A stretch of 46,703 bases of DNA from an uncultured Bacteroidales bacterium (GTDB taxonomy: Bacteria > Bacillota_I > Bacilli_A > ML615J-28 > CAG-698). Each line of letters starts with the position of its first letter. Positions within the stretch are counted from its first letter, which is position 1. Positions 6,020-44,804 of the stretch are shown here, one piece after another. Under the pieces are notes generated by a model. The model made no database searches. It worked only from the letters and a program-made list of their open reading frames with translations, and was not told the origin of the DNA. Made by a program: the position numbers and the translations under genes. Where the stretch lies: positions 1-46,703 of the forward strand of contig CAZYFI010000002.1 of NCBI GenBank assembly GCA_964646985.1, in the 5' to 3' direction.

Positions 6020-6028
6020 ATGGTCCTC

Positions 6029-8017: not shown

Positions 8018-8020
8018 ATT

Positions 8021-9025
8021 TTACCCCAACTTAACCCTTGGATCAACAACAGTATAGAGCAAATCCAGTAATAAATTTCCAACTAATCCGAGCATTGTGT
8101 AAAACAAATTCATTGCTAGAATAACAGCATAATCTGGTCCTTGCATAAGGGCGTCATAGAGGGTTTTCCCCATTCCCTTCCAAGCGAAAATGGTCTCAGT
8201 AATAGTAGATCCACCAAATATTCCTAACATCCATCCAGTCATGATGGTAACAACAGGAATCATGGCATTACGAAAAGCATGAGAATAAATAACGACTTTT
8301 TCACGAAGTCCTTTTGCTCTTGCTGTTCGAATATAGTCTTGCGTTAAAATATCAATCATCGTACCACGTACATATCGGGTAATTCCCGCAAGAGATGATA
8401 CAGTCAATACAAACACTGGTAAAACCATGTATTTCAAATTATCTAAAAATCTTTGGAACCACGTCATTTGTTCGCGTAAAATGATTCCGGAATTGCTTCC
8501 GCTACTTGGTAAAATTCCTAACCAAGCTGAAAACACTAAAATTGAAATCAAGCCAACGAAAAAACTTGGAATCGACATTCCAACGATTGTGAAAACTTGA
8601 ACACCGTTATCAAAAGTTGAGTATTTTTTGACAGCCGTTTTAATTCCCAAAGGAAACGTAATGGCAAAAACACAGATAAGCACGAATACATTTAATTTAA
8701 TGGTGTTAACCATTGGTGCTTTAATATACCGTAATACTTCAACTCGACTTTGTAAAGTATAGCCAAAATTACCTTGCAATGTTTCTTTTAGCCACATGAA
8801 ATATTGAATAATCAATGGTTGACCAATACCCAAGTCAATTTGAGCTTGCTTAATCATTAACACATACAAATCAGGATCCGATTGTTTTAATGATTGGTCA
8901 ACATACGCCATAACTCTGGCCATATCACCACCAGGAATTGATTTATATAAGAAAAACAATATGACAGTAATTATAAATGCAACAAAGAAGATATATAAAA
9001 TTCTTTTTATAATATATCTAGACAA
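8021..9025 (-). CDS. oppB: Oligopeptide ABC permease OppB
   Basis: BPD_transp_1-type permease (TARAKGLREKVVIYSHAFRNA). The track ORF begins with TTG at 9046. However, AAGGAGG at 9032-9040 sits 6 nt before a second in-frame TTG at 9025 (MSRYIIKRILY...), which is the typical OppB N-terminus. The start is therefore uncertain between 9025 and 9046. Confidence 0.8.
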   Translation of the reverse strand: MSRYIIKRILYIFFVAFIITVILFFLYKSIPGGDMARVMAYVDQSLKQSDPDLYVLMIKQAQIDLGIGQPLIIQYFMWLKETLQGNFGYTLQSRVEVLRYIKAPMVNTIKLNVFVLICVFAITFPLGIKTAVKKYSTFDNGVQVFTIVGMSIPSFFVGLISILVFSAWLGILPSSGSNSGIILREQMTWFQRFLDNLKYMVLPVFVLTVSSLAGITRYVRGTMIDILTQDYIRTARAKGLREKVVIYSHAFRNAMIPVVTIMTGWMLGIFGGSTITETIFAWKGMGKTLYDALMQGPDYAVILAMNLFYTMLGLVGNLLLDLLYTVVDPRVKLG

Positions 9026-9043
9026 ACTAGTTTCCTCCTTTTT

Positions 9044-9077
9044 CAAAAATTAGGAGATTGGTGAAAACCAATCTCCT
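9044..9077 (-). terminator. Intra-operon hairpin between oppA and oppB (partial terminator or mRNA stabiliser)
   Basis: Perfect 11-bp stem aggagattggt (9052-9062) / accaatctcct (9067-9077) with a GAAA-type 4-nt loop. On the minus strand it is followed by AAUUUUUG. Confidence 0.6.
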
Positions 9078-9105
9078 TAATTTAATGTCTAATCGGCCGA
9101 ATTAA

Positions 9106-11523
9106 TTATCCTTCAATAGTTGCGTATAATACGGCTTCGGTTAATGTCCATTCAGCTGTTACATCATAGTTCTTTAGCTTAGGAGAATAGAAAGCGTGAT
9201 ACATATCAGAATACAATGGTAATGATGGTAACAAGATATTAAATCTTAATTGATATTGTTGCCAAGCTTCTAGGTATTCTTGATCATCAGCAGCTCTCAT
9301 CATTTTTAAAGCAGCATCAAGCATTTCTTGATCGAATAAATAGTTGATATTTGCGCCGCCGTCCCAGCCCCAATACTCAATAGAAACATCATAGTAAGGT
9401 TCAAATAAACCAGTATTGAAACCTGTACCTAAGTTAACCATATGGTATTCACGAGCGTCTGTTTCAGTTGCTTCGTATGCAGGGATATCTGCAACTGTCC
9501 ATTTGCCATCGCCATCTTCATCTTTTGGTAAGCCGTAGCCATCGCCATCAGCGCCATAATAATGAGTGTATAACAATGTGTTGAAATCCATTGGTTGATC
9601 TTTAATTTCCATACCAACTGCTTTTGCATTTGGTAATAATTGAGCACGAATTAAGTCAGATACTGGGTTACCAGTTGTATTTGCCCAAGGAACTGTTAAT
9701 TTTACAAGTTCTGTTCCGACTAATTTGTAACGAACTGAACTTCCATCAGCAGCTTGAACATATGCGCCACCAGTAGCATTCTTATTCCAACCAGCTGCTT
9801 CAAGTAATTGAACAGCTTTTGCTGGATCATAACTATATGAATTTAATGCAACTAGATTGCCATCTTTGTCACGGCCTTGTACAACGCCGTTTTCATCTTC
9901 AGATGCGCCAACCATCCATTGTGCTAAACCATATTGTCCATTAGGTAATACACCATATCCACGAGTGTATGTCTCTAAGAATAAGTTACGATTAATTAAG
10001 TAAGCAATTGCTTGACGAACTTCTACATCTGCTGTAGGTCCAGAAGGTGCATCACAGTGGAATGCAATGTGTCCGAAACCATTACGAGAGAATGTTGAGA
10101 AGTTAATATTGCCATAAGCAACTTCTTGTAATCCAGAAATGATAGCATCGCCACCAGAAACTGATTCAATGATGTCAATTTCGCCATTCAATAATGCTTG
10201 CATTTGTGTTGCAGTTGTAACATATTTGAACACGATATTGTCAATGTCTGGTTTTTGACCTTGATAGTCACCAACAAATTTGTCATTGATTTTTAAAGTA
10301 GCTGTTGAAGTTGATTCATCAAAATCATATAAAGAGTAAGGGCCGCAAGTAACACTAATGTCATAGCGGTATCCAGCGCCGTCTTTATCAACAGTTGCTG
10401 CTAAAGCTTCAGCTGTCCAAGTGCCAGAAATCTTCGCACCATTTGTTCCTTGTACTACATCAGCAGCTGGAGCAATGACATGCATTGGCCATGGAGCTGC
10501 AGAATAGTATAAGAACTCATAGTAGTAAGGGAAACGATCTGCGTTGATTGAAATTGAGAATTTATGTGTTCCAAGTAAATCAACACCAGCTAATTCAGCT
10601 AAACCATCAGCATTTTTAGCTGGGTCAGCAAAATCTTTACTACCAACGATATCACCAGTAGTAGTCAATGCTTTACCAATTGCTGTAGCAAATACAGGGT
10701 TAATTGATAATAACATTGGGAATACATAGTCTTTCGCATCAATTGCAGTTCCATCATTCCATACTAAACCTTCATTGATTTCGATTGTATAAGTCTTTGA
10801 TCCATCAGTGTTTTCAGTTACAACAAAGTCTTTTACAACGGTTGGGTCAATCATGTAACGAGCTGCTTCTTTTTGATAAGATACAGTTCCGTACCCAAAT
10901 GTTAATGAACGAATATCAGCATTAGTAGCATTGTTGCCCCAGAATGTTGAGAACATATTAACACCAGCTTCAGTAGTAGAGCCAACTGTTAATGTAGTTA
11001 ATGCTTTTACAGTTACAACTTTAGTTTGTTGTCCTACGCCAGCAAGTGCACAAGTAATTGTTGCAGTTCCGGCTTTCAAACCAGTAACAACACCGTTTGC
11101 AACGGTTGCAACAGTAGCATCGCTTGAAGTCCATGTGAATGCAGGTGATGGCTTATCTGTTGTAGCAGTCAAAGTCAATGTTTTACCAACTTTAACTGAA
11201 CTGTCTCCAGCTAAACTGAAATTGAATTCAGTAACAGAGATAATTATAGTTTTTTCGCCAACGCCTTCAACGCTAACAGTAATAACTACTTCACCAACGG
11301 CAACGCCAGTTACAACGCCGTTATTAACTGTAGCTCGAGCAGTATTGCTTGAAGTCCAAGTAAAGACTGCTTCTGGCTTTTCAGTCACAGGAACTAAAGT
11401 GATTGTTTCTCCGACTTTTACGGTTTGTGGGCCTGAAAGAGAAAGAGTATACGTCTCTTCTTTACAGCCAACAAAAACTAACGCAAGAGCCAAAAAGAAA
11501 ACTAAACTTAAGAATTTTTTCAT
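9106..11523 (-). CDS. oppA: Lipoprotein, family-5 solute-binding protein (OppA-like) with two N-terminal Ig-like (Big_2-like) domains
   Basis: Signal peptide and lipobox LVFVGC. Two units of about 75 aa match each other (…VKVGETITLVPVTEKPEAVFTWTSSNTARATVNNGVVTGVAVGEVVITV / …VKVGKTLTLTATTDKPSPAFTWTSSDATVATVANGVVTGLKAGTATITC). These are followed by an SBP_bac_5-like body of about 620 aa. It is the first gene of the opp operon. Confidence 0.8.
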   Translation of the reverse strand: MKKFLSLVFFLALALVFVGCKEETYTLSLSGPQTVKVGETITLVPVTEKPEAVFTWTSSNTARATVNNGVVTGVAVGEVVITVSVEGVGEKTIIISVTEFNFSLAGDSSVKVGKTLTLTATTDKPSPAFTWTSSDATVATVANGVVTGLKAGTATITCALAGVGQQTKVVTVKALTTLTVGSTTEAGVNMFSTFWGNNATNADIRSLTFGYGTVSYQKEAARYMIDPTVVKDFVVTENTDGSKTYTIEINEGLVWNDGTAIDAKDYVFPMLLSINPVFATAIGKALTTTGDIVGSKDFADPAKNADGLAELAGVDLLGTHKFSISINADRFPYYYEFLYYSAAPWPMHVIAPAADVVQGTNGAKISGTWTAEALAATVDKDGAGYRYDISVTCGPYSLYDFDESTSTATLKINDKFVGDYQGQKPDIDNIVFKYVTTATQMQALLNGEIDIIESVSGGDAIISGLQEVAYGNINFSTFSRNGFGHIAFHCDAPSGPTADVEVRQAIAYLINRNLFLETYTRGYGVLPNGQYGLAQWMVGASEDENGVVQGRDKDGNLVALNSYSYDPAKAVQLLEAAGWNKNATGGAYVQAADGSSVRYKLVGTELVKLTVPWANTTGNPVSDLIRAQLLPNAKAVGMEIKDQPMDFNTLLYTHYYGADGDGYGLPKDEDGDGKWTVADIPAYEATETDAREYHMVNLGTGFNTGLFEPYYDVSIEYWGWDGGANINYLFDQEMLDAALKMMRAADDQEYLEAWQQYQLRFNILLPSLPLYSDMYHAFYSPKLKNYDVTAEWTLTEAVLYATIEG

Positions 11524-11743: not shown

Positions 11744-11749
11744 GATAAC

Positions 11750-11968
11750 TATAAACAATGATAAGGAATAGTATAGTGTTTGCCTCTTTGTAAAGCGAGT
11801 GTTGGATCGTGAAAGCAACGCCAAAAGCCCACTAGAATGGACCTTAGAGTGCAATGAAGAAATGCATTGACGTTTTGTTCGCGTTAAGAACTTTGAGTGT
11901 ATTGTTAACAATAAACTAAGGTGGTACCGCGGAATATTTCGTCCTTAATTCAATTAAGGACTTTTTTT
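11750..11968 (+). promoter_or_regulatory. T-box riboswitch leader, Trp specifier (UGG)
   Basis: Conserved T-box sequence AAGGTGGTACCGCGG (11919-11933). Terminator gtccttaatt/aattaaggac (11941-11961) plus a T-run. Stem-I GA/AGTA elements (gataaggaatagta). Candidate specifier GAA-UGG-A at 11838-11840. Confidence 0.85.
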
Positions 11969-11980
11969 ATTGGAGGATAT

Positions 11981-12973
11981 ATGAATATTATTTTATCAGG
12001 CGTTAAGCCCACAGGAATTCCAACTTTAGGCAACTATTTGGGTGCTTTAAGAAATTTTGTTAAGTTCCAAGACAAAATGAAGGACTATGATTTCTTTATT
12101 TTTGTTGCCGATTTGCACGCCATTACAACCCCACAAGATGCAACAGTGTTGAAGCAAAACATCAAAAATGTAGCAGCCCTCTATTTGGCTTGTGGTTTAA
12201 AACCCGAAAGACTCACATTGTTTATACAATCAGAAGTAAAAGAACATGCGGAACTTGCTTATATCATGCAATCGCTTGTGTATATGGGTGAATTAGAACG
12301 TATGACCCAATACAAAGATAAAATGGCAAAGCAAGTCCAAGGAGTTAGTGCGGCTTTGTTTACTTACCCTGCCCTCATGGCAGCTGATATTTTGCTTTAC
12401 GATGCAAAATTTGTACCCGTTGGCGAAGATCAAAGACAGCATTTAGAGTTAGCAAGAGACCTTGCCATTCGTTTTAACAATCGTTTTGGAAATACCTTTG
12501 TGGTTCCGGATGGACTCATTCAAGAAAAAGGAGCTAGGATCAAAGATTTGCAAGATCCTACCAAAAAGATGGATAAATCTGCTGATAATGATCGTGGTTG
12601 CATTTATCTTCTGGAACCTTTATCACAAGTGCGTAAAAAAATCAAATCTGCTGTAACAGATAGCGAAGCTCAAGTTCGCTATGACCTAGAAAACAAACCA
12701 GGAATCGCTAACCTAATGACCATATATTCTGTGATCACTGAGATGTCTTTCTCTGATATTGAAACAAAATATCAAAATAAAGGATACGGAGACTTCAAAG
12801 GTGATCTTGCAGAAATTGTTGTAAAAGAAATAGAAGGCATTCAAAATCGCTATCAATATTACATTCATTCTCAAGAATTAGATCAACTGCTAAATGCAGG
12901 AAGAGCCAAAGCTTCGCTATTGGCAAGTAAGAAAATAGCTCAAGTTTATAACAAAATGGGACTTGGACGTTAA
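11981..12973 (+). CDS. trpS: Tryptophan--tRNA ligase
   Basis: Collinear with B. subtilis TrpRS (GVKPTG..TLGNYLGA, VPVGEDQRQHLELARD, KKMDKS). True start is ATG 11981 behind GGAGG. The track start at 11921 (GTG) lies inside the T-box sequence. Confidence 0.95.
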   Translation: MNIILSGVKPTGIPTLGNYLGALRNFVKFQDKMKDYDFFIFVADLHAITTPQDATVLKQNIKNVAALYLACGLKPERLTLFIQSEVKEHAELAYIMQSLVYMGELERMTQYKDKMAKQVQGVSAALFTYPALMAADILLYDAKFVPVGEDQRQHLELARDLAIRFNNRFGNTFVVPDGLIQEKGARIKDLQDPTKKMDKSADNDRGCIYLLEPLSQVRKKIKSAVTDSEAQVRYDLENKPGIANLMTIYSVITEMSFSDIETKYQNKGYGDFKGDLAEIVVKEIEGIQNRYQYYIHSQELDQLLNAGRAKASLLASKKIAQVYNKMGLGR

Positions 12974-13055: not shown

Positions 13056-13976
13056 TCATAGAAAACCAATAATCTCTTGGTAAGTTGGCAAAGCATCAAT
13101 CGCTCCTTTTTTTGTAGTCGTCAATGCTCCCGAAATGTTTCCAAATCGTAACAGTTGTTTAATTTGCCAATCAGATAAAGAACGAATATCTTTTTGATCA
13201 AGATTTGCTAAAACACCAGCATAGAAAGCATCTCCAGCTCCTGTTGTATCAAAGGACTTGACTACAATGGAAGATTCCTTGATTAATCGGTTGTTTCTAA
13301 AAAAGACGGAACCTTCTTTCCCAAGAGTCAAGAAAATCGTTTGATTTGGCCGAGCTATTTTTTTCAATCCCTCTTCATAATTAGCGTCTTGAGTAAAAAG
13401 GGTTAATTCGTCTTGTGATAGCTTTAGAAAATCAGCTAAACAAGCATAAGATTGATAAATTTCGATGGCCGTCTTTTGATTTACGAACAAATCATCTCGA
13501 AAATTGACATCAAAGCTTAGTAATTGGTGATTGTCTTTCACAGTTTGGATAATCTGATCAGCCAACTTTCTCCCTTTTGGTTCGCTTAACATGAGGGACC
13601 CCAAATGAACAATGTTTGCTTTTTTTAATTGAGCAAGACTGGTTTTAGGAATATGAAAATCAGCGGTATTATGACGATAAAAACTAAAATGGCGTTCACC
13701 GTCTTCATCATTTGCAACAAAAGCAAGAGTCGTATTATGCTTTGAATCTTCTGTAAGACAAAGATTGGAAAACGAAATAGTTGAAGCAAATTTTTTTAGG
13801 AATTTTCCCATTAAATCCACGCCAACATTGCCAATAAATCCGACCTTTCCGCCGAATTTCGCAATCCCGCAAGCAACATTAAAAGGTGCTCCCCCGGCAA
13901 AAGATTCGTATGTAACTGTTTGCTTGTTCTTGTTTCCAATTAAGTCAACGAGAATTTCTCCGATGCACACAATCAT
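13056..13976 (-). CDS. Fructokinase (PfkB family sugar kinase)
   Basis: 306 aa. N-terminal GEILVDL...FAGGAPFNVA and the C-terminal PfkB ATP motif DTTGAGDAF. Sits in the fructan locus. Confidence 0.85.
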   Translation of the reverse strand: MIVCIGEILVDLIGNKNKQTVTYESFAGGAPFNVACGIAKFGGKVGFIGNVGVDLMGKFLKKFASTISFSNLCLTEDSKHNTTLAFVANDEDGERHFSFYRHNTADFHIPKTSLAQLKKANIVHLGSLMLSEPKGRKLADQIIQTVKDNHQLLSFDVNFRDDLFVNQKTAIEIYQSYACLADFLKLSQDELTLFTQDANYEEGLKKIARPNQTIFLTLGKEGSVFFRNNRLIKESSIVVKSFDTTGAGDAFYAGVLANLDQKDIRSLSDWQIKQLLRFGNISGALTTTKKGAIDALPTYQEIIGFL

Positions 13977-13986
13977 AATCGTTTCC

Positions 13987-14949
13987 TCAAGTTGTTTCTC
14001 CTAATATAAAATTCGTCGGAACAAAGGTAAATACTTCGGATGGTTCGTTGTTCATCCTTTGAATTAACTGGTTAACTATTGCCACCGCCAAAGCTTCGAT
14101 GTCTTGCTTGACGACGGTAAATTTAGGATGTTGTAATATTTCGTCCATCACGCCATCAAAGGAAATAATTTTAATGTCTTCCGGGACTCTTTTTTCAAAT
14201 TGAAGGGCAATTTGAAAACAAGTGTTTGCGAAAGTATCGCTTTGAGCAAAAATGCCATCTAGCGTCGGGTTGTCTTGCAAAAATTTCTTTGCCACCACAA
14301 ACTCTTCGCCGTGATATATATTTTTGTAACATGATGTTGGTTCCATGTTGTATTTTTGCATAACATCTAAATAAGCAAAATAACGTTTTTGGGTCTCCGA
14401 AGGGGCACTTGACATCCCACCAATGTAACCGATATGTTTACAGCCCTTTTGAACAAGATGTTCAATGGCCTTAAATGTGCTTTCATAGTTATCGCTAGTT
14501 ACACAAGGAACATTATCTAGATGACGATCCAAAGTCACAATATTTAAACCTTGAAAATCAATATCTTGGTATAGGTGGTTGGTAATAAAAATGATCCCAT
14601 CTACTTGTCCGGTTTTAATCATGTTCAACAAATGGATTTCTTTATCTCTTTTTCCTTGAGAACTAACAATAATCATTTTAAACCCTTTTTGATACAAATA
14701 ATCCTCAATGTAAAAAGCAATTTTGCTAAAGAAAACGTGACTAATGGTCGGAACAAATAAGGCTACCAACCCCGATCGTTTGGCTTGCAAGTTTCGCCCC
14801 AATTGATTGGGGATATATTTTAAATCTTTGATGGCATCTTCGATTTTTTTTCGCGATTCCTCAGAAACATAACCATTGTTGTTGATGTACCGAGAAACCG
14901 TCCCAATGCCCACCCCAGCACGTTTGGCGACTTCTTTCATTTGGGCCAT
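13987..14949 (-). CDS. LacI-family transcriptional regulator of the fructan locus
   Basis: HTH MKEVAKRAGVGIGTVSRYINN plus a periplasmic-binding-protein-like effector domain. Start set to ATG 14949 (MAQMKEV) behind AGGAG. Confidence 0.85.
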   Translation of the reverse strand: MAQMKEVAKRAGVGIGTVSRYINNNGYVSEESRKKIEDAIKDLKYIPNQLGRNLQAKRSGLVALFVPTISHVFFSKIAFYIEDYLYQKGFKMIIVSSQGKRDKEIHLLNMIKTGQVDGIIFITNHLYQDIDFQGLNIVTLDRHLDNVPCVTSDNYESTFKAIEHLVQKGCKHIGYIGGMSSAPSETQKRYFAYLDVMQKYNMEPTSCYKNIYHGEEFVVAKKFLQDNPTLDGIFAQSDTFANTCFQIALQFEKRVPEDIKIISFDGVMDEILQHPKFTVVKQDIEALAVAIVNQLIQRMNNEPSEVFTFVPTNFILGETT

Positions 14950-15039
14950 AATTAATACTCCTAACAAAATAAATTTCTTAACTTATTATATCACTATCAA
15001 GAACATTTTTAGCAGATGTTTTCAAATTTTTGTATAAAA

Positions 15040-15087
15040 AGTAGTTCTTTCACAATACTTTTTTTATGCATTCATGAAAGAACTACT
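15040..15087 (-). terminator. Terminator of the fructan operon
   Basis: 13-bp stem agtagttctttca (15040-15052) / tgaaagaactact (15075-15087). On the minus strand it is followed by UUUUAU. Confidence 0.6.
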
Positions 15088-15104
15088 TGATGAATCAATT
15101 GAAA

Positions 15105-17852
15105 TCATCCAACCAATTGATTGGCGATTGTTTGCCATGGAATGTTGTGACTGCGTTCAACGGTCCATTGATCAGAAGCATCTTTGCTGTATAAAGTAAC
15201 CGTGTCAAATCCGTTAGCGATATCTGGAGTAACGGCATAATACGTAGTTACAGCATCAAAGAAAGCAACTGCCCAACCAGCAACTTCAATGTCACAAAGT
15301 TCAAGGTATAATTCTTGACCTAAGTAAGCACTTAAATCAATGAAATATGTTCCCATATCCGCCCAAGAGCCACCAGCATCAACATTAGGGAAATTGGTGT
15401 CGCTAAAACGGTTTTGCTTGTATAAGCCTATTTGAGTGCCATCAGCTTGATATACTTTAACAGCTGCGGCATTTCCGCCCATTTTCACAGAAATAAATCC
15501 TGTTCCATGAAGAGTGAAATTAGTGGAACGCAATGAATATTGTTCGCCTTCTGCAACGCCTGAAGTCCAACCATCAAAATGATAATTGCCACTTTGGTTA
15601 TAAGGAAGTTTTTCATTCCAATAATGTGTCATATTGATGATAGCATTAACAGTAACTTTTTCTGAAGTCCACCCTGTCATATCTCCGGTTTCAAAACCGC
15701 CATTGATAACAACACCATTATTTGCCATTTCCCAAACAATATTAACATTTGGTTCTTGAACCGAATCTTTTGTGGATCCAGCCACCGTATCAAACCCGTT
15801 CGCAACATCTGGAATAGCAGTATGATAGAAATTAATATCATCAAAGAAAGCAACTGCCCAACCAGCTGTAGCTGGATCATCAATCAATTCAACATAGACT
15901 TTTTCGCCTAAATATGCTGATAAATCTGCAAAATAGCGTGTCATGGTTGCCAAACGGCCACCGTTTGCTAAATAAGGGAAATCAAAATCTTTAAATCGAT
16001 AATTAGTGAAGTACCCAATAACGGTTCCATCTTCCAACACAACTCTAACTGCGGCAGCTTTGCCACCCATCATAAACGAAGCCCAACCTGTTCCAGATAA
16101 AGTGAACAATCCAGAACGAAGGGTATAGCCAGCTCCTTCATTAGATGTAGCTGTCCAACCATCAAAGTGATAACTTCCTTGCTGGTTATAAGCTATTTTT
16201 TCACCCCAGAAAGTTTCTGCATTTAAAGCCCCATTGGCGATTTCACCAGAAACAACTGTCCAACCGGTCATATCTCCAGTTTCAAAGCCACCATTGGCAA
16301 CATTGGTACTAGCCGATACAACAACATTGAAAGTACTAGTGACGGTTTCGCTTTCATAAGTCGCTCCATAATGAACGACATAAGTTCCTTCTTGATTAAA
16401 ATCAAAAGCATCAAATCCGGTTGTAAACTCGGTTTCGCCTAAAACAACTTTGGTAATAACAGCCGGTACGGCAGTTTCACCATAAGAAATAACGACATCA
16501 TCCATTAATGCGGTCAAATCATAATCATCAACCAAGGCTGTTACAAAGCCTTCAGCTTCTGTTTCAATCATTAAAGCTGGCAATTCAAATGGATAATCAT
16601 AATTGGTGTAGTAATCTTGCAAATGAGCAAGCGAATTATATGAATCAGTATATGTTTCTGCCATAATCGCTTGATAAGTAGATTTCATTAACGCTTTTAC
16701 TTCGGCTTCAGTCATGCTGACACGGAAATCATCAGCATTAATAAATGCAAATCCGCTACTTGGATTGTTATCCACAATCGAAAGATAGAGAACATCGCCA
16801 AGATAATCTGATGCATCAACATACACACGACGTAATGTCAAAGGCAACCCTGGATCGTTAAAAGTCGTATTCGTAACGGTGATTAATTCTGCATCCGTTG
16901 TTCCGTCATTAATCGAAATATAACAATTAGTTGGTCCTGCACCAATCATAAACGAAATCCAACCATCACCCGCTAATGTAAATTTTGTGGAACGAATCGC
17001 GCCAACTGCTGATTCTGCCGTTGCCCCGTTGTTGTTTCCATCTAAATAATAATCCCCTTCGCCATATACCAAACGATCTGTCCAGTAATATTGCGTAGTT
17101 GGTACAACAACCGTTCCGCCAAATGCTGTTCCGCTTAATTGTTTCCAGCCAGTTAAATCACCTGCTTCAAATCCACCATTGTTGATGGTTGTTGAAGTAG
17201 GATCTTCTTCAAATTCTGGTTCGCCATAAGCTTCGATTTGAGCATCTCGCTCTGTTTGGAAAGCCGTAACTTCGGCTTCTGTCAAGCAAACTACAAAATC
17301 ATCTAAATTAACATAACCATAATCATCGGTATTATCACTATCCGTCACTTTGATGTAAATGACTTTATTTAAGTGTGCTGATAAATCAACGATTTTGCGA
17401 ATCATTTGATCAGTGATATATGGTTCATTGTAATCAGTGTTTGATACTTTTAATAGCGCAGTATCATTGTCTTTTTCAAAGAATTCTACAAAGATCTTAT
17501 CTTGATTCTTTCCAGCTCCCATTTTGAAAGCAATCTTTCCAGTTCCTGTTAATTGGAAGAAATCGGAAGTCAGTGTTCCCACCATTTTTTGGGTTCCGCC
17601 ATCGGTACCACTAAACCAAAATTCACCGGTTTTATCAACCGTAATTCCATTCACTTTTACATCATTCACAATTCCTCGAGGACTAAACGCAGTTTCTGTT
17701 TTCGTCCATCCCGTCCAAACTTCTGCAGTTCCAAGCTCAAATCCACCATTGGTGATTTGGGTTGGATACTCTTCTTTTTTACCACATGCTGCTAACAACA
17801 TTAACGATAGTGTTAGCGTCACTACAAAGGTAAAACGCAACCATTTTTTCAT
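15105..17852 (-). CDS. Large non-catalytic surface lipoprotein with four CBM-like beta-sandwich modules (putative fructan-binding protein)
   Basis: Lipobox LLAAC. Four modules of about 155 aa each open with NGGFE(x)G(x)(x)(x)GW, at about aa 33-188, 222-378, 518-676 and 715-872. No GH32 catalytic motifs. Co-operonic with the GH32 genes. Confidence 0.75.
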   Translation of the reverse strand: MKKWLRFTFVVTLTLSLMLLAACGKKEEYPTQITNGGFELGTAEVWTGWTKTETAFSPRGIVNDVKVNGITVDKTGEFWFSGTDGGTQKMVGTLTSDFFQLTGTGKIAFKMGAGKNQDKIFVEFFEKDNDTALLKVSNTDYNEPYITDQMIRKIVDLSAHLNKVIYIKVTDSDNTDDYGYVNLDDFVVCLTEAEVTAFQTERDAQIEAYGEPEFEEDPTSTTINNGGFEAGDLTGWKQLSGTAFGGTVVVPTTQYYWTDRLVYGEGDYYLDGNNNGATAESAVGAIRSTKFTLAGDGWISFMIGAGPTNCYISINDGTTDAELITVTNTTFNDPGLPLTLRRVYVDASDYLGDVLYLSIVDNNPSSGFAFINADDFRVSMTEAEVKALMKSTYQAIMAETYTDSYNSLAHLQDYYTNYDYPFELPALMIETEAEGFVTALVDDYDLTALMDDVVISYGETAVPAVITKVVLGETEFTTGFDAFDFNQEGTYVVHYGATYESETVTSTFNVVVSASTNVANGGFETGDMTGWTVVSGEIANGALNAETFWGEKIAYNQQGSYHFDGWTATSNEGAGYTLRSGLFTLSGTGWASFMMGGKAAAVRVVLEDGTVIGYFTNYRFKDFDFPYLANGGRLATMTRYFADLSAYLGEKVYVELIDDPATAGWAVAFFDDINFYHTAIPDVANGFDTVAGSTKDSVQEPNVNIVWEMANNGVVINGGFETGDMTGWTSEKVTVNAIINMTHYWNEKLPYNQSGNYHFDGWTSGVAEGEQYSLRSTNFTLHGTGFISVKMGGNAAAVKVYQADGTQIGLYKQNRFSDTNFPNVDAGGSWADMGTYFIDLSAYLGQELYLELCDIEVAGWAVAFFDAVTTYYAVTPDIANGFDTVTLYSKDASDQWTVERSHNIPWQTIANQLVG

Positions 17853-17865
17853 TTTTCTCTCCTTT

Positions 17866-19899
17866 TTATTTATTTACTAAAATATCATATTTATTGACTT
17901 GTTTTAAACTATAGCTGAACTGTATTATACATTTTTGATCAGGGTAAACATTTCCCGTCATTGTCATATAACCATCATTGATGAATACTTCAACACTTGA
18001 TACATCTAAAAATATGCGTAATTTTAAAATCCCGTTATGAAGTACTACGTCAACATTTCGCGTTGAACGGTTCATTTCCGCACCGCTGATGGTCTTTCCA
18101 GAATTACTACGATCAAAGACAACTGTTTGTGATAGAGCATCATAATAAACAAGCGTTTCATTGGCTTCACCCTTAAATAGTTTAACGCCTACTTTGGATG
18201 ATGAGCCAACTTCGATTTCCAGTTCTAATTCTACGGTTTTTCCCGAAATTTGCGGAAGTGTCAAACTTCCATTAACTGTTTTGTTCTGGTAACTAACCGC
18301 ATTGGTCCGATAATCGATGATTTCGCGAACCGGAGTTTGATAAACATGGCCATCTTGATAAGTCAATTCTCTTGGCAAAGTATAAGCACCAACCCAATTA
18401 TGGGCTTGTGTGACCAAAGTCCGATCCCACATTTGCATCCAAGCAAGCATAATCGTTCTTCCATCCGGTGTTTGCATCGTTTGGGCGGCATAAAAATCAA
18501 AGCCTCCATCAAACTCAACAAATTCATCATAATCATAACGCCCACTCTGATAGTCCATTTCACCAACCATGTAAACAACCGAATGAATGTTTTCAAATTG
18601 ATTGCCCTCTTTCGGAAGGTTCTGTGGACTAACAATTAGAATTTCTTGCCCATCGATTGTTACAAAGTCCGGGCACTCATAAACTCCAGATAATTGTAAA
18701 AAATGAGGAGCTAGCGGATTATGATTGTTCATGACTTTTCCTACATAATCCCAACTAGTAAGGTTGGAAGAGCGATATAGAACAATCATTCCATAACCAT
18801 TGGCTTTGGTTCCGATGAGGCAATAATAATAACCGTCATGATAAAACACTTTCGGATCACGGAAATCCGCAGTCGATACCCCAGAAGGCACTTCAATCGT
18901 GGATATTACCGGATTGCGATTCAATTTTTCAAAATTAATTCCGTCCTCTGAAACTGCTAGATTTTGCGTCTGCTGATTATTGGCTACACCTGTATACATT
19001 AAGTACAATTTTCCATCTTTTTCAATGGCAGTGCCGCTAAAGCATCCCAAATCCTGATCATAATCTTGATCCGGTGCTAACGCCACGGGTTGTAATTCCC
19101 ATTTTACAAAATCTTTGGTCGTATAATGACCCCAATGCATTGGTCCCCAACTGCTGGCATAAGGATTAAACTGATGAAACAAATGGCCTTCGCCATTGAA
19201 CCAAATTAACCCATTCGGATCATTACTCCAACCGATTGGCGATATAGCATGGTAAGTATGTCGATAGGTTGGGTTAACTGTATTTAAATTTTCTAGAACA
19301 TATTGATATGCGTCGTATACTTTTCCCACTTGATCTTCAACTCCTTGGTAATTTACAATAAAATCATCAACATTGATATAATTGTAATCATCGATTTTGC
19401 TATCATTATCAATCACTTTTATTTGAACAGTTTTTCCTAGATGTGCACTGGCATCAATTATGACGCGGTGCAAAGTATTCGGGCTACTTTCATCAAAATC
19501 GCTGTTCGCACGAATAGCGAGTTCGTTTCCTCGTGAATCAATTAAGGCCACATAACACAATGCGTTGTTTTTTGCTCCACTTAACAAAAAACCGATTTTT
19601 CCGTTTCCCTTTAATTTAAATTTTTCGCTAAGCATAAATCCGGTTTTACTGAAACCGGCTTTTTTCCCATAAAAGAGAAATTCGCCAGCTTGGTTAAATC
19701 GTTCGCCGTTTTCATCTTTATCATTAAGGACAATACCCGAGTTTGAAAAAGCATCTCCGCTTGTTTCCCAACCTTTTAGAGTCCCGCTTTCAAAACTGGC
19801 ATTTAAAAAAGTATATTCACCCGCAACTGTACTCGTGCATCCCCCCAAAGCTAAAGTGATGGCGAAAAGAATTGCGCTCACAATCCACTTATTTTTCAT
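17866..19899 (-). CDS. GH32 beta-fructofuranosidase lipoprotein (exo-type motifs) with an N-terminal CBM-like module
   Basis: Lipobox LALGGC. N-terminal module of the same family as modules 1-2 of the 915-aa protein (…INVDDFIVNY). GH32 motifs WSNDPNG, FRDPKVF and YECPDF. Confidence 0.85.
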   Translation of the reverse strand: MKNKWIVSAILFAITLALGGCTSTVAGEYTFLNASFESGTLKGWETSGDAFSNSGIVLNDKDENGERFNQAGEFLFYGKKAGFSKTGFMLSEKFKLKGNGKIGFLLSGAKNNALCYVALIDSRGNELAIRANSDFDESSPNTLHRVIIDASAHLGKTVQIKVIDNDSKIDDYNYINVDDFIVNYQGVEDQVGKVYDAYQYVLENLNTVNPTYRHTYHAISPIGWSNDPNGLIWFNGEGHLFHQFNPYASSWGPMHWGHYTTKDFVKWELQPVALAPDQDYDQDLGCFSGTAIEKDGKLYLMYTGVANNQQTQNLAVSEDGINFEKLNRNPVISTIEVPSGVSTADFRDPKVFYHDGYYYCLIGTKANGYGMIVLYRSSNLTSWDYVGKVMNNHNPLAPHFLQLSGVYECPDFVTIDGQEILIVSPQNLPKEGNQFENIHSVVYMVGEMDYQSGRYDYDEFVEFDGGFDFYAAQTMQTPDGRTIMLAWMQMWDRTLVTQAHNWVGAYTLPRELTYQDGHVYQTPVREIIDYRTNAVSYQNKTVNGSLTLPQISGKTVELELEIEVGSSSKVGVKLFKGEANETLVYYDALSQTVVFDRSNSGKTISGAEMNRSTRNVDVVLHNGILKLRIFLDVSSVEVFINDGYMTMTGNVYPDQKCIIQFSYSLKQVNKYDILVNK

Positions 19900-22280
19900 C
19901 AGCCTGATCCTTCCTCATAAATCGATTTCATGCTTGCTACGGTCATTTGTTTGATGACGACATCGCCATTTTCCGAAAACAGCACCATTCCAAGAGAGGA
20001 TGGATCAGGATATATTCGAGCAGATATGGCTTTTTGTTGATTGAAAAAGGCTTCTACCAATGAACGGTCCAAATAGATGTCCATCTCCATGGTAGATTGT
20101 TCAAAGCTGAATGATCCATAAAAATGGCCAGAAATATTTTGATTATCGCTTAAAGCTCCGCTCAATCCTGTTTTAACACCTATGGTTTTTAAGGATTCAT
20201 TAAAATAGAGGGTTGTTTCTTCAAGAACAGAAGCGTTTTTCCGAACTTTAATACCAAATTGGGAAGCATTAACATTTTCAAATTCAATGTGAATATAGAG
20301 CATATCCCCTTTCACATCGCTCAACAACGAATTCGCTTCACTCAAAGTTTTATTCGTCATTGACACTAAGGTTTCTTGATGATAATTGTTTATAGCTGCA
20401 ACAGGACGAATCATCAAATCAGTCCCGTCATCGTTTAAATATACTTCTCTTGCTAACCCGACACCATGCGCCCAACCAGATAAAAAGGCATCTGATGGTT
20501 TTCTTTGATCTTGCATAATACTAAATAAAATAGCTTTTTTGGAAACAGGATCAATAAATCCCGATGGTCCCGTAAACACGTTGTTGCCATAATCAAGCAA
20601 CCTTGGGGTTGTTCCAAATGCTGGATCAGGAGTAAAACGCCCTGCGGTTTTATCAAAACTGCCAAGCCAATAATAAATATCATTATCGGCACTGTCCGCT
20701 GGTGCAGGACTAATAATAAACATATACTTGGTAATGGTATTGCTCTCATTAGAAACTGGTAACATCAAAGGTAATTCCCAAACCGGCCCAAGATCCGCCG
20801 GTTGATTTACTTGTTCGTATAATTGTCCCTTATATGTCCAGTTTTGAAATGAATCATCTTTTGTTGTATAAAGTAGAGCGGTCCCACCGGTATTCCACTT
20901 TGTACTCGATGAACCAATCAACAAATACCAAGTGTCTTGTTCTTGCCAGATATGAGCATCGCGAAATTGTCCCGAAGCTCCCTGACCAGAAACTTGTTTG
21001 ATTGCCAATTCATCATCGACAACCCATTCTGTTAAATACGGATCAGTCGGATCTTTCGGGCGAGCAATGCCAATATTTTGATTGCTGATTAAACCATCTT
21101 TTTGATAAGAATCATTTCCAGCAGTAAATAATAGTACTGGTACTCCATCCGCATCATAGGTGGCTCCCCCACTCCAAACACCATCGGGGCACACGGAATC
21201 AGCCGTTGGTGTAATAACTTCTTTTAGAGGCCGCCAATTAACCATATCATCACTGATTAAATGTCCCCAACCAATATTCCGAAAATAAGGACCAAATAGA
21301 TTGAATTGGAAGAATAAGTGATAATAGCCATTATAATACATCGGTGCATGAGGTTCATTCATCCAATGTTGGTAGGGACCTCCATGATATTGTGTTTTAT
21401 AAATATCATTTGTTAAAATATTTTGTAGCCAAATGTCTTCAAAAGCAATTTCCGGAACAACAACACGGGAATATGCTTTTTGAACATCATCGGCTTGTAA
21501 ACAAGCATCATAAATTTTTAAATCATCTAGTAGTCCACTGACCATGTTTAAAGTTGCCGTAGCATTTGATCCGGGATAACTATTGCGCGCAATGAGCAAA
21601 GGTTCTCCAGAAGCACCAACAATGGTTGCTCCTTGAAAAAAATAATCGCTATTAACCAATTCACCATTTAGATAAATAGCCATCTCACCTTGATCACCAT
21701 CAAATACAGCTACAATATGATTCCATTCGTATTTTACAAGTGGATGATTATCATCCCACAAACTAAGCCAGCGATCGCCTAACCCGACTTGGAAGCTCCA
21801 AGCCCCATGGCGCTGATAACCAAGGATGAATCCTTGATTTTCACTTTTATTATGCTGTGAAACAATGGCTGTCAGTTTATCGGTTCCATTCATTTGTGCA
21901 TTCGGGTCATCCCATTCAAAAGCGCGCGGAGCCACCCAAACACTGATTGTAAGTTGCGACCCACGTACTTTTAAATCTTCTTCTGGATAACGGATAAAGT
22001 TCGAATACCCATCAAATAATAAAGAACCATTAACAACCCCTGTTTTTCGCCACTGCGGATCTTGGGGAGAAGGCAAATAAGTTGGATTGGTCAATACATA
22101 AGCAATGGTTGCTGGGTCTTCTTTTTTAGCAGCATCAAGAGCTTTATTCCCTTGTCCCTCATCAAATGTTAAATGTAACAACAAATCCTTGGCATAGGGA
22201 TCATTATTGCCACAAGCAAATAAACTAGCAACAACGAATATTAGGAAAAAAAACAAGAATATTTTTTTTGTTATTTGCAT
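19899..22280 (-). CDS. LamG-like plus GH32 lipoprotein (variant nucleophile motif WMNEP)
   Basis: Lipobox SLFAC. Concanavalin/LamG-like region (LLFDGYSNFIRYP...LTISVWVAPRAF...LDDLKIYD). GH32 core WMNEPHA (Glu codon 21354-21356), FRDAHIW, WELP. RBS AGGAGG. Its stop overlaps the next ATG (TGATG). Confidence 0.8.
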   Translation of the reverse strand: MQITKKIFLFFFLIFVVASLFACGNNDPYAKDLLLHLTFDEGQGNKALDAAKKEDPATIAYVLTNPTYLPSPQDPQWRKTGVVNGSLLFDGYSNFIRYPEEDLKVRGSQLTISVWVAPRAFEWDDPNAQMNGTDKLTAIVSQHNKSENQGFILGYQRHGAWSFQVGLGDRWLSLWDDNHPLVKYEWNHIVAVFDGDQGEMAIYLNGELVNSDYFFQGATIVGASGEPLLIARNSYPGSNATATLNMVSGLLDDLKIYDACLQADDVQKAYSRVVVPEIAFEDIWLQNILTNDIYKTQYHGGPYQHWMNEPHAPMYYNGYYHLFFQFNLFGPYFRNIGWGHLISDDMVNWRPLKEVITPTADSVCPDGVWSGGATYDADGVPVLLFTAGNDSYQKDGLISNQNIGIARPKDPTDPYLTEWVVDDELAIKQVSGQGASGQFRDAHIWQEQDTWYLLIGSSSTKWNTGGTALLYTTKDDSFQNWTYKGQLYEQVNQPADLGPVWELPLMLPVSNESNTITKYMFIISPAPADSADNDIYYWLGSFDKTAGRFTPDPAFGTTPRLLDYGNNVFTGPSGFIDPVSKKAILFSIMQDQRKPSDAFLSGWAHGVGLAREVYLNDDGTDLMIRPVAAINNYHQETLVSMTNKTLSEANSLLSDVKGDMLYIHIEFENVNASQFGIKVRKNASVLEETTLYFNESLKTIGVKTGLSGALSDNQNISGHFYGSFSFEQSTMEMDIYLDRSLVEAFFNQQKAISARIYPDPSSLGMVLFSENGDVVIKQMTVASMKSIYEEGSG

Positions 22281-22289
22281 TTTTCCCTC

Positions 22290-24644
22290 CTATATTGTTT
22301 TCATCGTCTGGACCAACAGACGATTAATCATGATTTGGCCATCGGCGAATACCATCATTTGCGAAGCGTTATTATAGACCATCGCTGTTAAGGTCCGGTA
22401 ACCGTTGATATAAACTTCAATCATGGCACCATCAATAAAGATCTCTAAATCAAGAACATCTTCAGGTAATAACATCATTTGTCCGCCAAAAACGCCTTTC
22501 ACCACTGTATTTCCCGAGTTGGTCGTATCAATCGAGATATATTGATTGATTACATCATAATGAAGAATTGTTTCTTGCCCAAATTGATCTTTTTTCAAAA
22601 CAATTCCCAAATTATTAGCATCCCCATTGGCTATTTGCAAATGAAGATATAATTGATTCCCAGAAACTGTTGAAAGAGCTTGATTGGCAGTTTGAATATT
22701 GGTGTTTGTTTTATCCACAAGCAAATCAGATTTTAAATCATCCAATTCTTTCAGTGGACCAACCATTAATTCACCATCATCATCGAGCGATAGCTGACGA
22801 GGAACGCCAGCTGAATGAGCCCATCCCGCAGCATATTCCATACGTCCGGTTCTTTGTCCTTGGATAATGCTACAAATTAATACTCGTCCAGTCAAAGGAT
22901 CAGTGGAAATTGTCGGACCGGTAAAAACATTATTTCCCAAATCCATTAATTTGGGATTTTCATGTTCAGGAACAAACTTCATCGTTGTTTTATTAAAATC
23001 ACCTAAGTAATAATAGACATCATTATCTGCCCCTGAACCCGCGGGAGAAAAAGCAAAGAGATATTTCGAAACCGTTTTGTTGGCATTGGTAACCTTCGCA
23101 AGATTCACTAATTCCCAAGTAGTTCCCATATACTTATGGTAAATAGTTGGCATAAACAACTCACCTTGATAATCCCAGTTTAAAAACGAATCATCTTGGG
23201 TAGTAAATACTTGGGCAGTTCCTTTTCCATCATAACGAGCGGACCCAACAAACATATAATAAGTCCCGTCCTCATAATAAATATTCGGATCGCGGAATTC
23301 ATTGGTTTTTGCCATGGACGAATTCGACATTGCCACCAATTGGTCACTTATTACCCATTCTGTCAAATCGGGATCAGTTAAATCTTTGGGAACAGCAATC
23401 GCCACATTTTGATTGCTCCACTGACCAAAGCTTTTAGCATCATCACCCGCTGTAATAAACAAAACCGGCGTTCCGTCTTTTTTATAAGAGGCTCCTCCCG
23501 ACCATATTCCATCTGGGCAAACCGAATTTTTCATAGGAATGATTGCTTCTTTCACATTCCGCCAATTAACCATATCCGGGCTAACCCAATGACCCCAAGC
23601 AATCTGGCGCCAATAAGGTCCCGTAAGGTTAAATTGGTAAAACAAATGGTAGTTGCCCTGATAGTAAAAGAGGGCGTGTGGTTCATTCATCCAATGTTGC
23701 GGAGGTGAAGCATGGTATTGTGGTTTATAAATGTCATCATCTAGAATTTCTTCATTAAGCCATGCATCGGAAAAATGAATGGGGCGGATGCGGTCTTTTT
23801 GTACAAAACTATCATGGTATGTTTTCACATCTAAAGCATTAAGGGATGATTGATATATTCGTAATTCATCCATCAAACCATTAAACATATTTAATTCAAA
23901 GACTCCCGTTTTTTGGGGAATTTGACTTTTACCAATATATAAAGGTTTATCAGCTGGGGCAATTGCTCCAAAGATGCCATCATGATTATTAACCAATTCA
24001 CCGTTTTTATACATGCCCATAAAGCCGGTTGTTCCATCAAAAACAACCGTTAGGTGATTCCATGTATAACGATCTAAATCATTCCATTCATTCCAAAGTT
24101 TTATCCATCGATCACCAAGACCAATTTGAAATGAATATTCGCCATATTTGTGCATGCCTAAAACAAATCCTTGGTTTTCAGCCTTATCATATTGACCAAG
24201 GATTACCTGCAAATGCTCACTATTGTTTTCGACTGCTCCGGGAGCATCCCATTCAAACATTCTTGGACTGATAAACAAATCTATGGTTAAATGTTGTCCG
24301 CTAATTTGGATATCTTGATAACCATACTCAATGTAGTTGGAATACCCATCAAAAGCCAAACAAGAGCCGCTGATAGCGGAACGACTAATCCAAGAAGGAT
24401 CAATGGATTGTTTATATGCGGCTTGGGTAAAGACATAGTTGATCGTAGCTTTCTTAGTTGTTTTCTGATCAGTAATCTCGTTACCTTTATTTTCATCAAA
24501 GTTCGCAAAAAAATACAAATCTTGGAAATAAGGGTCTTCAAATTCATGGTAATAAAGTGCCTCATTGTCTATTTTAGCGCACCCATACGAAAGCAATATC
24601 AAGATGAAAGCCATAAAACAAATAAATATTTTTTTCATTCGCAT
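22290..24644 (-). CDS. LamG-like plus GH32 lipoprotein, paralogue of the preceding gene (WMNEP variant)
   Basis: Same architecture: LAFDGYSNYIEYG, LTIDLFISPRMF, WMNEPHA (Glu codon 23682-23684), FRDPNIY, WELV. Start ambiguous among 24647, 24644 and 24638. Signal peptide ends LLSYGC. Confidence 0.8.
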   Translation of the reverse strand: MRMKKIFICFMAFILILLSYGCAKIDNEALYYHEFEDPYFQDLYFFANFDENKGNEITDQKTTKKATINYVFTQAAYKQSIDPSWISRSAISGSCLAFDGYSNYIEYGYQDIQISGQHLTIDLFISPRMFEWDAPGAVENNSEHLQVILGQYDKAENQGFVLGMHKYGEYSFQIGLGDRWIKLWNEWNDLDRYTWNHLTVVFDGTTGFMGMYKNGELVNNHDGIFGAIAPADKPLYIGKSQIPQKTGVFELNMFNGLMDELRIYQSSLNALDVKTYHDSFVQKDRIRPIHFSDAWLNEEILDDDIYKPQYHASPPQHWMNEPHALFYYQGNYHLFYQFNLTGPYWRQIAWGHWVSPDMVNWRNVKEAIIPMKNSVCPDGIWSGGASYKKDGTPVLFITAGDDAKSFGQWSNQNVAIAVPKDLTDPDLTEWVISDQLVAMSNSSMAKTNEFRDPNIYYEDGTYYMFVGSARYDGKGTAQVFTTQDDSFLNWDYQGELFMPTIYHKYMGTTWELVNLAKVTNANKTVSKYLFAFSPAGSGADNDVYYYLGDFNKTTMKFVPEHENPKLMDLGNNVFTGPTISTDPLTGRVLICSIIQGQRTGRMEYAAGWAHSAGVPRQLSLDDDGELMVGPLKELDDLKSDLLVDKTNTNIQTANQALSTVSGNQLYLHLQIANGDANNLGIVLKKDQFGQETILHYDVINQYISIDTTNSGNTVVKGVFGGQMMLLPEDVLDLEIFIDGAMIEVYINGYRTLTAMVYNNASQMMVFADGQIMINRLLVQTMKTI

Positions 24645-24651
24645 CACTTCT

Positions 24652-25575: not shown

Positions 25576-25582
25576 TATCACC

Positions 25583-26515: not shown

Positions 26516-26529
26516 TGTTCACCTCTATT

Positions 26530-27879: not shown

Positions 27880-27958
27880 CCTTTCTGTTGTCATTAAAAA
27901 TGAGAAAATAGTTTGTTTCATGATTATGTTTTGAAACATCTAGAATTTGCATTCTATA

Positions 27959-28040: not shown

Positions 28041-28069
28041 ATTGTAAACCCTTACAAAATCTTTGTCAA
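28041..28069 (-). promoter_or_regulatory. SigA-type promoter of the fructan operon
   Basis: On the minus strand, TTGACA (28069-28064), a 17-nt spacer, then TACAAT (28046-28041). Confidence 0.65.
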
Positions 28070-35118: not shown

Positions 35119-35135
35119 ATATCCTCCTTTAAACA

Positions 35136-35328: not shown

Positions 35329-35330
35329 CT

Positions 35331-44797: not shown

Positions 44798-44804
44798 TTA
44801 TGAC

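Follow-up and report, generated by a model that had tools for sequence, protein, structure and literature searches.

A predicted lipoprotein with four CBM38-type modules at the end of a GH32 operon, a candidate surface fructan-capture protein

Contig CAZYFI010000002.1 (assembly GCA_964646985.1), from an uncultured bacterium placed by GTDB in the Bacilli_A, was analyzed from position 1 to 46,703, and this whole stretch of 46,703 nucleotides (nt) is called the window. On its minus strand lies an operon for a sugar importer and three lipoproteins of glycoside hydrolase family 32 (GH32), and its last gene, at 15105-17852, encodes the protein of 915 amino acids (aa) studied here. The protein carries a lipoprotein signal and four modules assigned by homology to CBM38, the carbohydrate-binding module (CBM) family of cycloinulo-oligosaccharide fructanotransferases (CFTases), and has no enzyme domain. 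It is probably a lipid-anchored surface array that captures fructan for the GH32 enzymes encoded beside it. An earlier interpretation, made from the DNA letters and their open reading frames without database searches and here called the sequence-only reading, had proposed a function of this kind.

Gene and operon position

The gene and the elements that delimit its operon are the following.

28041-28069, minus strand: sigma-70-like promoter match TTGACA-17-TACAAT, the best of the region, upstream of the binding-protein gene; a consensus match only
17857-17865, minus strand: ribosome-binding site AAAGGAGAG, 6 nt before the ATG and 13 nt past the stop codon of the upstream GH32 gene, G1
15105-17852, minus strand: open reading frame of the 915-aa multi-CBM38 predicted lipoprotein, with an ATG start and the stop codon counted in
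17784-17852, minus strand: predicted lipoprotein signal peptide with lipobox LAAC (aa 1-23, Cys23), from conservation of the Cys and a helix at aa 3-21 of the model
15034-15088, minus strand: terminator-like hairpin with U-run at the operon end, directly 3' of the stop codon of the 915-aa gene

The reading frame is real, as the sequence-only reading had held; its strand, which that reading had not given, is minus. All genes of the operon lie on this strand in the order binding protein, two permeases, the GH32 genes G3, G2 and G1, and the gene of the 915-aa protein. The terminator hairpin has a folding free energy (dG) of -21.8 kcal/mol (z -5.7), and none of 200 shuffled sequences was equally stable. 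The ribosome-binding site, the terminator and the promoter-like site therefore mark the gene as the last of a seven-gene operon. The exact 915-aa protein was absent from the contig index.

The N terminus of the protein, MKKWLRFTFVVTLTLSLMLLAAC, is a lipoprotein signal that runs from MKKW to the lipobox LAAC, and Cys23 is kept in at least 90% of 86 aligned homologues, in agreement with the lipobox already noticed in the sequence-only reading. By its signal peptide and its lipobox with a conserved Cys the protein is a predicted bacterial lipoprotein, and we infer from these features that Cys23 is lipidated.

Module architecture

The mature part of the protein is made up of four modules, M1 to M4, and a spacer between the two pairs.

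17268-17756, minus strand: M1 (aa 33-195), CBM38-type, "C-terminal CFTase" subtype, ending VNLDDFVV/TEAEV
16698-17186, minus strand: M2 (aa 223-385), CBM38-type, "C-terminal CFTase" subtype, most conserved part of the protein
16302-16697, minus strand: spacer of two helices (aa 382-416) and a beta-rich, probably immunoglobulin-like (Ig-like) domain (aa 427-512)
15813-16301, minus strand: M3 (aa 518-680), CBM38-type, "N-terminal CFTase" subtype, ending GWAVAFFD
15228-15710, minus strand: M4 (aa 715-875), lineage-specific duplicate of M3

A motif search located NGGFE at aa 35, 225, 520, and 717, the ending (V/I)N(L/A)DDF(V/R)V followed by TEAEV at aa 184-195 and 374-385, and GWAVAFFD at aa 664 and 859 with PD(V/I)ANGFDTV after both. 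In pairwise BLAST comparisons M3 and M4 are 56% identical (E 4e-64), followed by M2 and M3 (35%, E 3e-26), M1 and M2 (33%, E 1e-24), and M1 and M3 (29%, E 2e-13). Judged by these alignments the four modules are homologous, with a similarity well past the chance level. The four homologous modules of the sequence-only reading and all the motifs it had quoted were thus recovered by motif search and BLAST, and its module length of about 155 aa has to be corrected to about 165-175 aa. Its description of two subtypes, each duplicated, holds in part: the subtypes are real and M4 is a copy of M3, but M1 and M2 are old, separately conserved positions, M2 being equally close to M1 and to M3. The first subtype had also been placed at the N terminus of the adjacent GH32 protein, and indeed the N-terminal ~170 aa of G1 are 40% identical to M1 (E 7e-29). 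Mean identity to the 86 homologues is 66% for M2, 57% for M1, 50% for M3, and 39% for the Ig-like domain, and M4 is present in only 30 of the 86.

None of the motifs WMNDPNG, RDP, or EC was found by motif search in the 915-aa protein, and neither Pfam, NCBIfam, the motifs, nor the AlphaFold model revealed a GH32 or other catalytic domain, as the sequence-only reading had supposed. A cryptic GH32 enzyme was considered and ruled out, there being no motif, no family match, and no propeller in the model. Searches of Pfam and NCBIfam with the whole protein and with each module, down to E 10, gave nothing usable; the sole NCBIfam match, NTTRR-F1, scored 46 bits against a cutoff of 70 and spans only the NGGFETG...W start of M4.

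Predicted structure and fold

An AlphaFold2 model of the full-length protein was built on an 87-sequence alignment and reached a predicted local distance difference test score (pLDDT) of 92.2 and a predicted template modeling score (pTM) of 0.73. Behind a signal helix it shows four modules that consist entirely of beta structure, with helical linkers at aa 192-209 and 382-416 and a further, beta-rich domain of aa 427-512; M3 and M4 are each followed by a short beta extension. Nothing in it resembles a propeller or another enzyme domain. M2 modeled separately (pLDDT 94.2, pTM 0.91) is all-beta with about 10 strands. Its best Foldseek match was a porphyran-binding CBM (8xmz, E 5e-5, template modeling (TM) scores 0.52/0.65), a protein on which a literature search yielded nothing relevant, and further best matches were CBM61, a gingipain adhesin domain, CBM35, CBM6, CBM4-2, and CBM16. 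The best matches are thus beta-sandwich CBMs with TM scores of about 0.5-0.65, and the fold comparison that the sequence-only reading had proposed as a check places the M2 model closest to carbohydrate-binding modules. According to the model, the module folds as a jelly-roll beta-sandwich, which belongs to the CBM4/6/16/35/61 superfamily and not to the LamG/ConA type.

Foldseek with the full-length model returned mostly unrelated multi-sandwich proteins such as reelin and Cry protoxins (TM <0.2), and the surface glycan-binding protein (SGBP) structures 7kwb and 6e57, both SGBP-B, were among the matches. Sequence searches of the Protein Data Bank (PDB) with the protein and with the 87-sequence profile found no related chain, only the N-terminal motif of 8xmz (E 0.02) and the Big_3-like domain 2kpn (E 0.14).

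The Ig-like spacer that had been proposed for aa ~430-512 corresponds to the beta-rich domain of the model, a region with pLDDT >90, whereas the Ig-like matches that would name it are all sub-threshold. They comprise 2kpn at the E value above, InlK_D3 at E 0.007 and, in four of ten orthologous spacers, Big_3, PKD, and Bact_surface_Ig-like. From the secondary structure of the model and the sub-threshold Pfam matches, it is plausible that aa 427-512 are Ig-like.

Assignment of the modules to CBM38

A profile of five modules of the window, M1-M4 and the N-terminal module of G1, was searched against 1.84 billion cluster representatives and matched 1717 proteins at E <= 1e-3 and 273 at E <= 1e-30. 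A GH32 catalytic domain is present in the same chain in 24 of the 145 best cluster representatives, and these fused relatives typically consist of two to four modules, LamG, GH32, and a C-terminal module. A search with the relative P0135 retrieved two proteins named as CFTases by their source, P0356 from Paenibacillus polymyxa (1333 aa) and P0317 from Niallia circulans (UniProt O52973). In BLAST, M3 is 45% identical to aa 77-245 of P0356 over 172 aa (E 7e-42), the first N-terminal module of this CFTase. The other modules also match P0356, M4 with 39% (E 6e-33), M2 with 38% (E 3e-24), and M1 with 30% identity to aa 77-237 (E 9e-16), and the N-terminal module of G1 is 37% identical to the C-terminal module of the enzyme (E 4e-20). 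Matches to the N. circulans protein P0317 have similar values.

In the P. macerans CFTase, CBM38 (formerly X39) comprises residues 32-389, a segment described as two beta-sandwiches that bind levan and inulin with low micromolar affinity (PMC10076258, which cites Lee, Kim and Choi 2004). The five-module profile matches P0356 at aa 73-252, 259-399, and 1167-1333, of which the first two fall within the CBM38-defining segment 32-389 of the P. macerans enzyme. A second anchor is a Defluviitalea GH32 protein for which dbCAN gave CBM38 at 44-189, 221-367, 409-527, and 1313-1448 and GH32 at 808-1121 (PMC7355431). P0135 is built alike, with profile modules at 36-215, 220-399, 403-566, and 1328-1494 and GH32 at 816-1307.

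In an alignment of 12 modules, M3, M4, and the N-terminal CFTase modules have in common the stretch W.EK(I/L).YNQ.G.YH.(D/N)GW ... (D/G)W(G/A)V.F.D, and M1, M2, the N-terminal module of G1, and the C-terminal CFTase modules have in common the ending G(F/Y).(H/Y)(I/V)N(V/L)DDF.V. The two subtypes are, on this alignment, old and already present in the CFTase. Conserved W, Y, H, E, and R residues include W549, Y555, H562, and W566 in M3 and W257, E280, R287, and R342 in M2. The modules thus combine similarity to the founding CFTase, a beta-sandwich fold, and association with GH32, and by homology M1-M4 are assigned to CBM38, the inulin- and levan-binding module of CFTase. The sequence-only reading had left the choice between CBM66 and a new family, and neither applies; nor do the modules match a non-fructan CBM or a non-carbohydrate domain family. 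The protein looks like an orphan because Pfam, NCBIfam, and the PDB hold no model or structure for the CBM38 module.

CBM66 was rejected for M1-M4, which gave no Laminin_G_3 match even at E 10 and no PDB sequence match, and no entry so labeled was among the 50 best fold matches of M2. The 915-aa protein has no match to Pfam CBM_4_9 (PF02018), and marginal matches of 27-28 bits to it lie inside modules of the relatives P0122, P0378, and P0371. Together with the CBM4-2 and CBM16 fold matches, this suggests a distant link to CBM4/9 at the superfamily level only.

Arrays of 6, 7, and up to 10 CBM38-type modules were observed in the relatives P0121 (1520 aa), P0122 (1075 aa), P0125 (3900 aa), and P0152 (3220 aa), in none of which a GH32 domain was detected. 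Some of the large arrays also carry Bact_surface_Ig-like or lamin-tail domains.

Protein family and conserved neighborhood

More than 368 full-length homologues were found in a 90%-clustered database, all of them unnamed or "hypothetical" and none with a Pfam domain. Members are annotated in this way everywhere because no Pfam or NCBIfam model covers CBM38. The nearest homologue, from a metagenome-assembled genome (MAG) labeled "Bacilli bacterium", is 91% identical. The family architecture is lipobox, M1, M2, spacer, and one to three M3-type modules, and the commonest form has three modules in ~720 aa.

A scan of one genome per GTDB species gave at least 104 carriers, 80 of which were listed. 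All 80 are MAGs, and most of them represent gut Clostridia of rabbits, ruminants, mice, and chickens. Their hosts are Oscillospiraceae, Lachnospiraceae, Christensenellaceae, and other Clostridia besides a few Bacilli, with human gut and digesters as further sources. The setting in a GH32 operon, as claimed by the sequence-only reading, extends to the family: 79 of the 80 listed loci have a GH32 gene within 10 kb, and the exception is a contig of 3.7 kb. A LamG-GH32 gene is present in 77 of the 80, on the same strand as the lipoprotein gene in all 77, at most 600 bp away in 62 of them, and mostly directly downstream. Among the same 80 loci, 60 have a PfkB kinase, 60 ABC permeases, and 57 a LacI regulator. 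In two loci that were annotated in full, an ABC importer, LacI, and PfkB occur together.

The gene of the window turns up chiefly in wastewater metagenomes. In one wastewater metatranscriptome, contigs with at least 99% identity fall on the operon, and among the stretches they cover is 16669-16868, within the gene itself. In one wastewater metagenome (run X1), a Logan contig has 14 extra letters between window positions 18596 and 16094 and would skip the end of the CBM38-GH32 gene together with M1, M2, and the spacer. The contig could represent a genuine deletion variant, or else a chimera made in assembly between repeated modules.

Neighboring genes of the operon

The remaining genes of the locus are the following.

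24652-27939, minus strand: ATP-binding cassette (ABC) sugar importer genes with which the operon opens, for a family-1 solute-binding protein and two permeases
26530-27939, minus strand: solute-binding protein of this importer (SBP_bac_1, 469 aa)
19899-24647, minus strand: two paralogous LamG(Laminin_G_3)-GH32 lipoproteins of 793 and 785 aa, from Pfam and comparison with CFTases
22290-24647, minus strand: G3, LamG-GH32
19899-22280, minus strand: G2, LamG-GH32
17866-19899, minus strand: G1, a 677-aa GH32 lipoprotein with one N-terminal CBM38-type module (aa ~25-195) and canonical WSNDPNG/RDP/ECP, upstream of the 915-aa gene
13056-14967, minus strand: LacI-family regulator and PfkB fructokinase, downstream of the terminator; the same pair occurs in homologous loci

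The N termini of G1, G2, and G3 are lipoprotein-like signals ending in Cys (LGGC, LFAC, and SYGC). The nearest structures to G1 are of the sucrose-6-phosphate-hydrolase/beta-fructofuranosidase type. G2 and G3 are 42% identical to each other. With the LamG+GH32 core of CFTases they share 36-39% identity over ~770 aa and the unusual motif variants WMNE(P/A)HA, FRD(P/A), and WEL(P/V). Within the pair, WMNEPHA replaces WMNDPNG and WEL(P/V) replaces EC, and G2 has FRDA for RDP. A PDB sequence search with G2 and G3 gave no SacC match at E <= 1e-3 that would make their LamG domains CBM66, and the domains are therefore called Laminin_G_3 only.

Two loci from Clostridia have, in the position of the solute-binding protein, a ~550-aa protein with no Pfam match (L001, 8282-9943; L002, 3973-5619). 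The binding protein of the importer, SBP_bac_1 in the window, seems to have been exchanged between lineages.

Proposed function and alternatives

The separate lipoproteins of the operon are the same parts as those of single-chain CFTase-type enzymes, namely a CBM38 array, LamG, and GH32, and this fusion/fission relation supports a functional coupling. From the viewpoint of evolution, the CBM38 array that a multimodular CFTase-type enzyme carries within its chain is here a polypeptide of its own, the 915-aa lipoprotein. The function that these data favor, and that we consider probable, is that of a non-catalytic, lipid-anchored surface array of four CBM38 modules that captures fructan for co-anchored GH32 enzymes. 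After export and lipidation at Cys23 the chain would reach out from the membrane of the monoderm Bacilli cell, and its four modules would hold beta-2,1 and/or beta-2,6 fructan chains multivalently. The bound polymer would thereby stay beside three co-anchored GH32 lipoproteins, the two LamG-GH32 proteins and the exo-type CBM38-GH32 protein. Freed fructose or short fructo-oligosaccharides (FOS) could then pass through the ABC importer of the operon and be phosphorylated by the PfkB kinase, with the LacI repressor presumably controlling the fructan system.

Several points weigh against this interpretation. Fructan binding is deduced from homology and gene context, for the protein and the family alike, and the CBM38 assignment itself rests on homology to CFTase modules and on dbCAN coordinates published for another protein. 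The comparison was made with the namesake enzymes of P. polymyxa and N. circulans, whereas the characterized CFTase is that of P. macerans (GenBank AAG47946.1). Furthermore, GH32 is missing from the chain in 121 of the 145 best relatives, and ligands can vary within one CBM family, so that glycans other than fructan may be bound by some of the proteins with such modules. Neither a cytoplasmic GH32 nor an ABC ATPase is encoded in the operon, and the pathway is incomplete as read; the energizing subunit and the fate of imported oligosaccharides would therefore be encoded elsewhere. The metatranscriptome contigs are a weak sign of expression and may reflect DNA carry-over.

The composition of the CFTase-type chain (two to three CBM38 modules, LamG, GH32, and CBM38) leads to the question whether the protein is instead an obligate non-catalytic subunit, which would form a stable complex with LamG-GH32, provide the CBM38 array in trans, and might steer hydrolysis versus transfructosylation. 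The 36-39% identity of G2 and G3 to the CFTase core with its common motif variants, the LamG-GH32 gene immediately adjoining and co-oriented in most of the 77 loci, and the conservation of M2 (66%), well above that of the other modules as expected of an interface or key site, are all in line with it. Yet no docking or interaction domain was recognized in the 915-aa protein, independent proteins of one pathway are equally expected to be gene neighbors, and recombinant LamG-GH32 enzymes of gut Firmicutes act alone as exohydrolases (PMC7833758 and PMC12678895). The subunit is an unlikely explanation. An adhesin that fixes the cell to fructan-rich matrices, such as levan biofilms or plant particles, for a positional benefit would be less probable again. 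Such a role would suit the multivalent, lipid-anchored, non-catalytic build with an Ig-like spacer, the relatives of 1500-3900 aa with up to 7-10 modules and no GH32, and the occurrence of the gene in wastewater and gut communities, where levan-containing biofilms occur. However, the gene stands nearly always in a fructan catabolic operon (79 of the 80 listed loci), its co-transcription with enzymes and an importer argues for substrate acquisition, and capture and adhesion can coexist.

A third alternative, in which the protein binds no fructan because its modules have acquired another ligand or serve structure alone, for instance as a stalk spacing enzymes from the membrane, is very improbable. 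Identities to CFTase modules of only 30-45%, the several specificities possible within CBM families, and the lack of a GH32 fusion in most of the relatives with these modules speak for such a drift. Against it, the segments conserved between the CFTase N-terminal modules and M3/M4 include runs of aromatic and polar residues such as sugar sites typically have, W.EK(I/L).YNQ.G.YH.(D/N)GW, the linkage to GH32 is kept across Clostridia and Bacilli, and the same module is fused to the neighboring exo-type GH32 protein G1.

The capture reading can be carried further, to a membrane-anchored fructan "utilisome" of monoderms formed by the lipoprotein, the three GH32 lipoproteins, and the solute-binding lipoprotein, with the 915-aa protein as the detached CBM38 arm of a CFTase, but this extension is speculative and itself has a low probability. 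Transfructosylation or cyclic products at the surface, which the array might retain, are conceivable because G2 and G3 have the CFTase-specific variants WMNE(P/A)HA and WEL. If true, such an assembly would be the Gram-positive counterpart of the Bacteroides levan utilisome.

Comparison with known systems

The closest known system is the CBM38 of CFTases, or inulin-binding module (IBM), of P. macerans, P. polymyxa, and N. circulans. The modules are homologous (30-45% identity, E 1e-15 to 7e-42), are ~165-aa beta-sandwiches with the opening N-x-x-F-E-x-G-x-L-x-G-W, and stand in tandem together with GH32 and LamG, the N-terminal type resembling M3/M4 and the C-terminal type M1, M2, and the N-terminal module of G1. 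In the CFTases, however, they lie within one secreted enzyme chain, whereas the protein of the window is a separate, enzyme-free predicted lipoprotein with an Ig-like spacer. Binding has been demonstrated for the P. macerans enzyme only, as cited in PMC10076258. CBM66 of Bacillus subtilis SacC, which binds levan ends, is likewise a non-catalytic fructan-binding beta-sandwich attached to GH32; its fold class, Laminin_G_3, occurs in the neighbors G2 and G3, whereas M1-M4 belong to another class.

The sequence-only reading had compared the protein with the SusE/SusF-type proteins of Bacteroidetes, and this stands as a functional analogy and fails as a homology. Bacteroides SusE and SusF and the SGBP BT1761 of the levan locus also have a lipidated N terminus, tandem beta-sandwiches without catalytic function, and a place in a glycan locus, and they are presumed to keep polymer at the surface for nearby enzymes and an importer. 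In contrast to them, the locus of the window has no sequence homology to these proteins, no outer membrane, and no SusC/SusD, imports through an ABC system with a lipoprotein binding protein, and has modules assigned to the CAZy family CBM38 and not SusE/F-type domains. Enzyme-free Gram-positive surface proteins for polysaccharide capture are represented by the Sas proteins of Ruminococcus bromii with their starch-binding CBMs. Compared with these, the candidate ligand is fructan and not starch, the anchor is a predicted lipid and not cohesin-dockerin or the cell wall, and the CBM family is another.

In the searchable literature, mentions of CBM38 were confined to GH32 enzymes that carry it and to counts in tables of carbohydrate-active enzymes, and no stand-alone multi-CBM38 lipoprotein was described. 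"Hypothetical" genes are drawn without comment in the fructan loci of Eubacterium rectale (Sheridan et al. 2016). What is new is the combination of a known fructan-binding module family with a known protein type, the non-catalytic surface glycan-binding protein, which will not surprise a specialist. Fructans (inulin, FOS, and levan) are the most widely used prebiotics, and their surface retention by Gram-positive gut bacteria is poorly understood. For the fructan-binding activity observed on the surface of gut Firmicutes, the enzyme-free CBM38 array is a candidate. The lipoprotein is also a convenient soluble target for a first CBM38 structure, no related PDB chain having been found, and its gene is a marker for fructan loci that are incompletely described by GH32-only searches.

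Other features of the window

At 2878-11523 on the minus strand lies an Opp-type peptide ABC transporter with unusual additions. Its OppC-like permease (662 aa) carries an RCC1-repeat (beta-propeller) insert, its family-5 binding protein (805 aa) combines a lipobox with a Big_2 domain, and one ATPase of 737 aa is extended in its N-terminal part.

Three T-box leaders scored above the Rfam gathering threshold.

11749-11949, plus strand: T-box leader upstream of trpS (11921-12973)
35157-35335, minus strand: T-box leader upstream of tyrS (33859-35136)
44572-44802, minus strand: T-box leader upstream of a gene for a pyridoxal phosphate (PLP)-dependent enzyme (43289-44464)

A second LacI-family regulator, at 35331-36320 on the minus strand, adjoins an M29 aminopeptidase gene, far from the sugar genes of the window.

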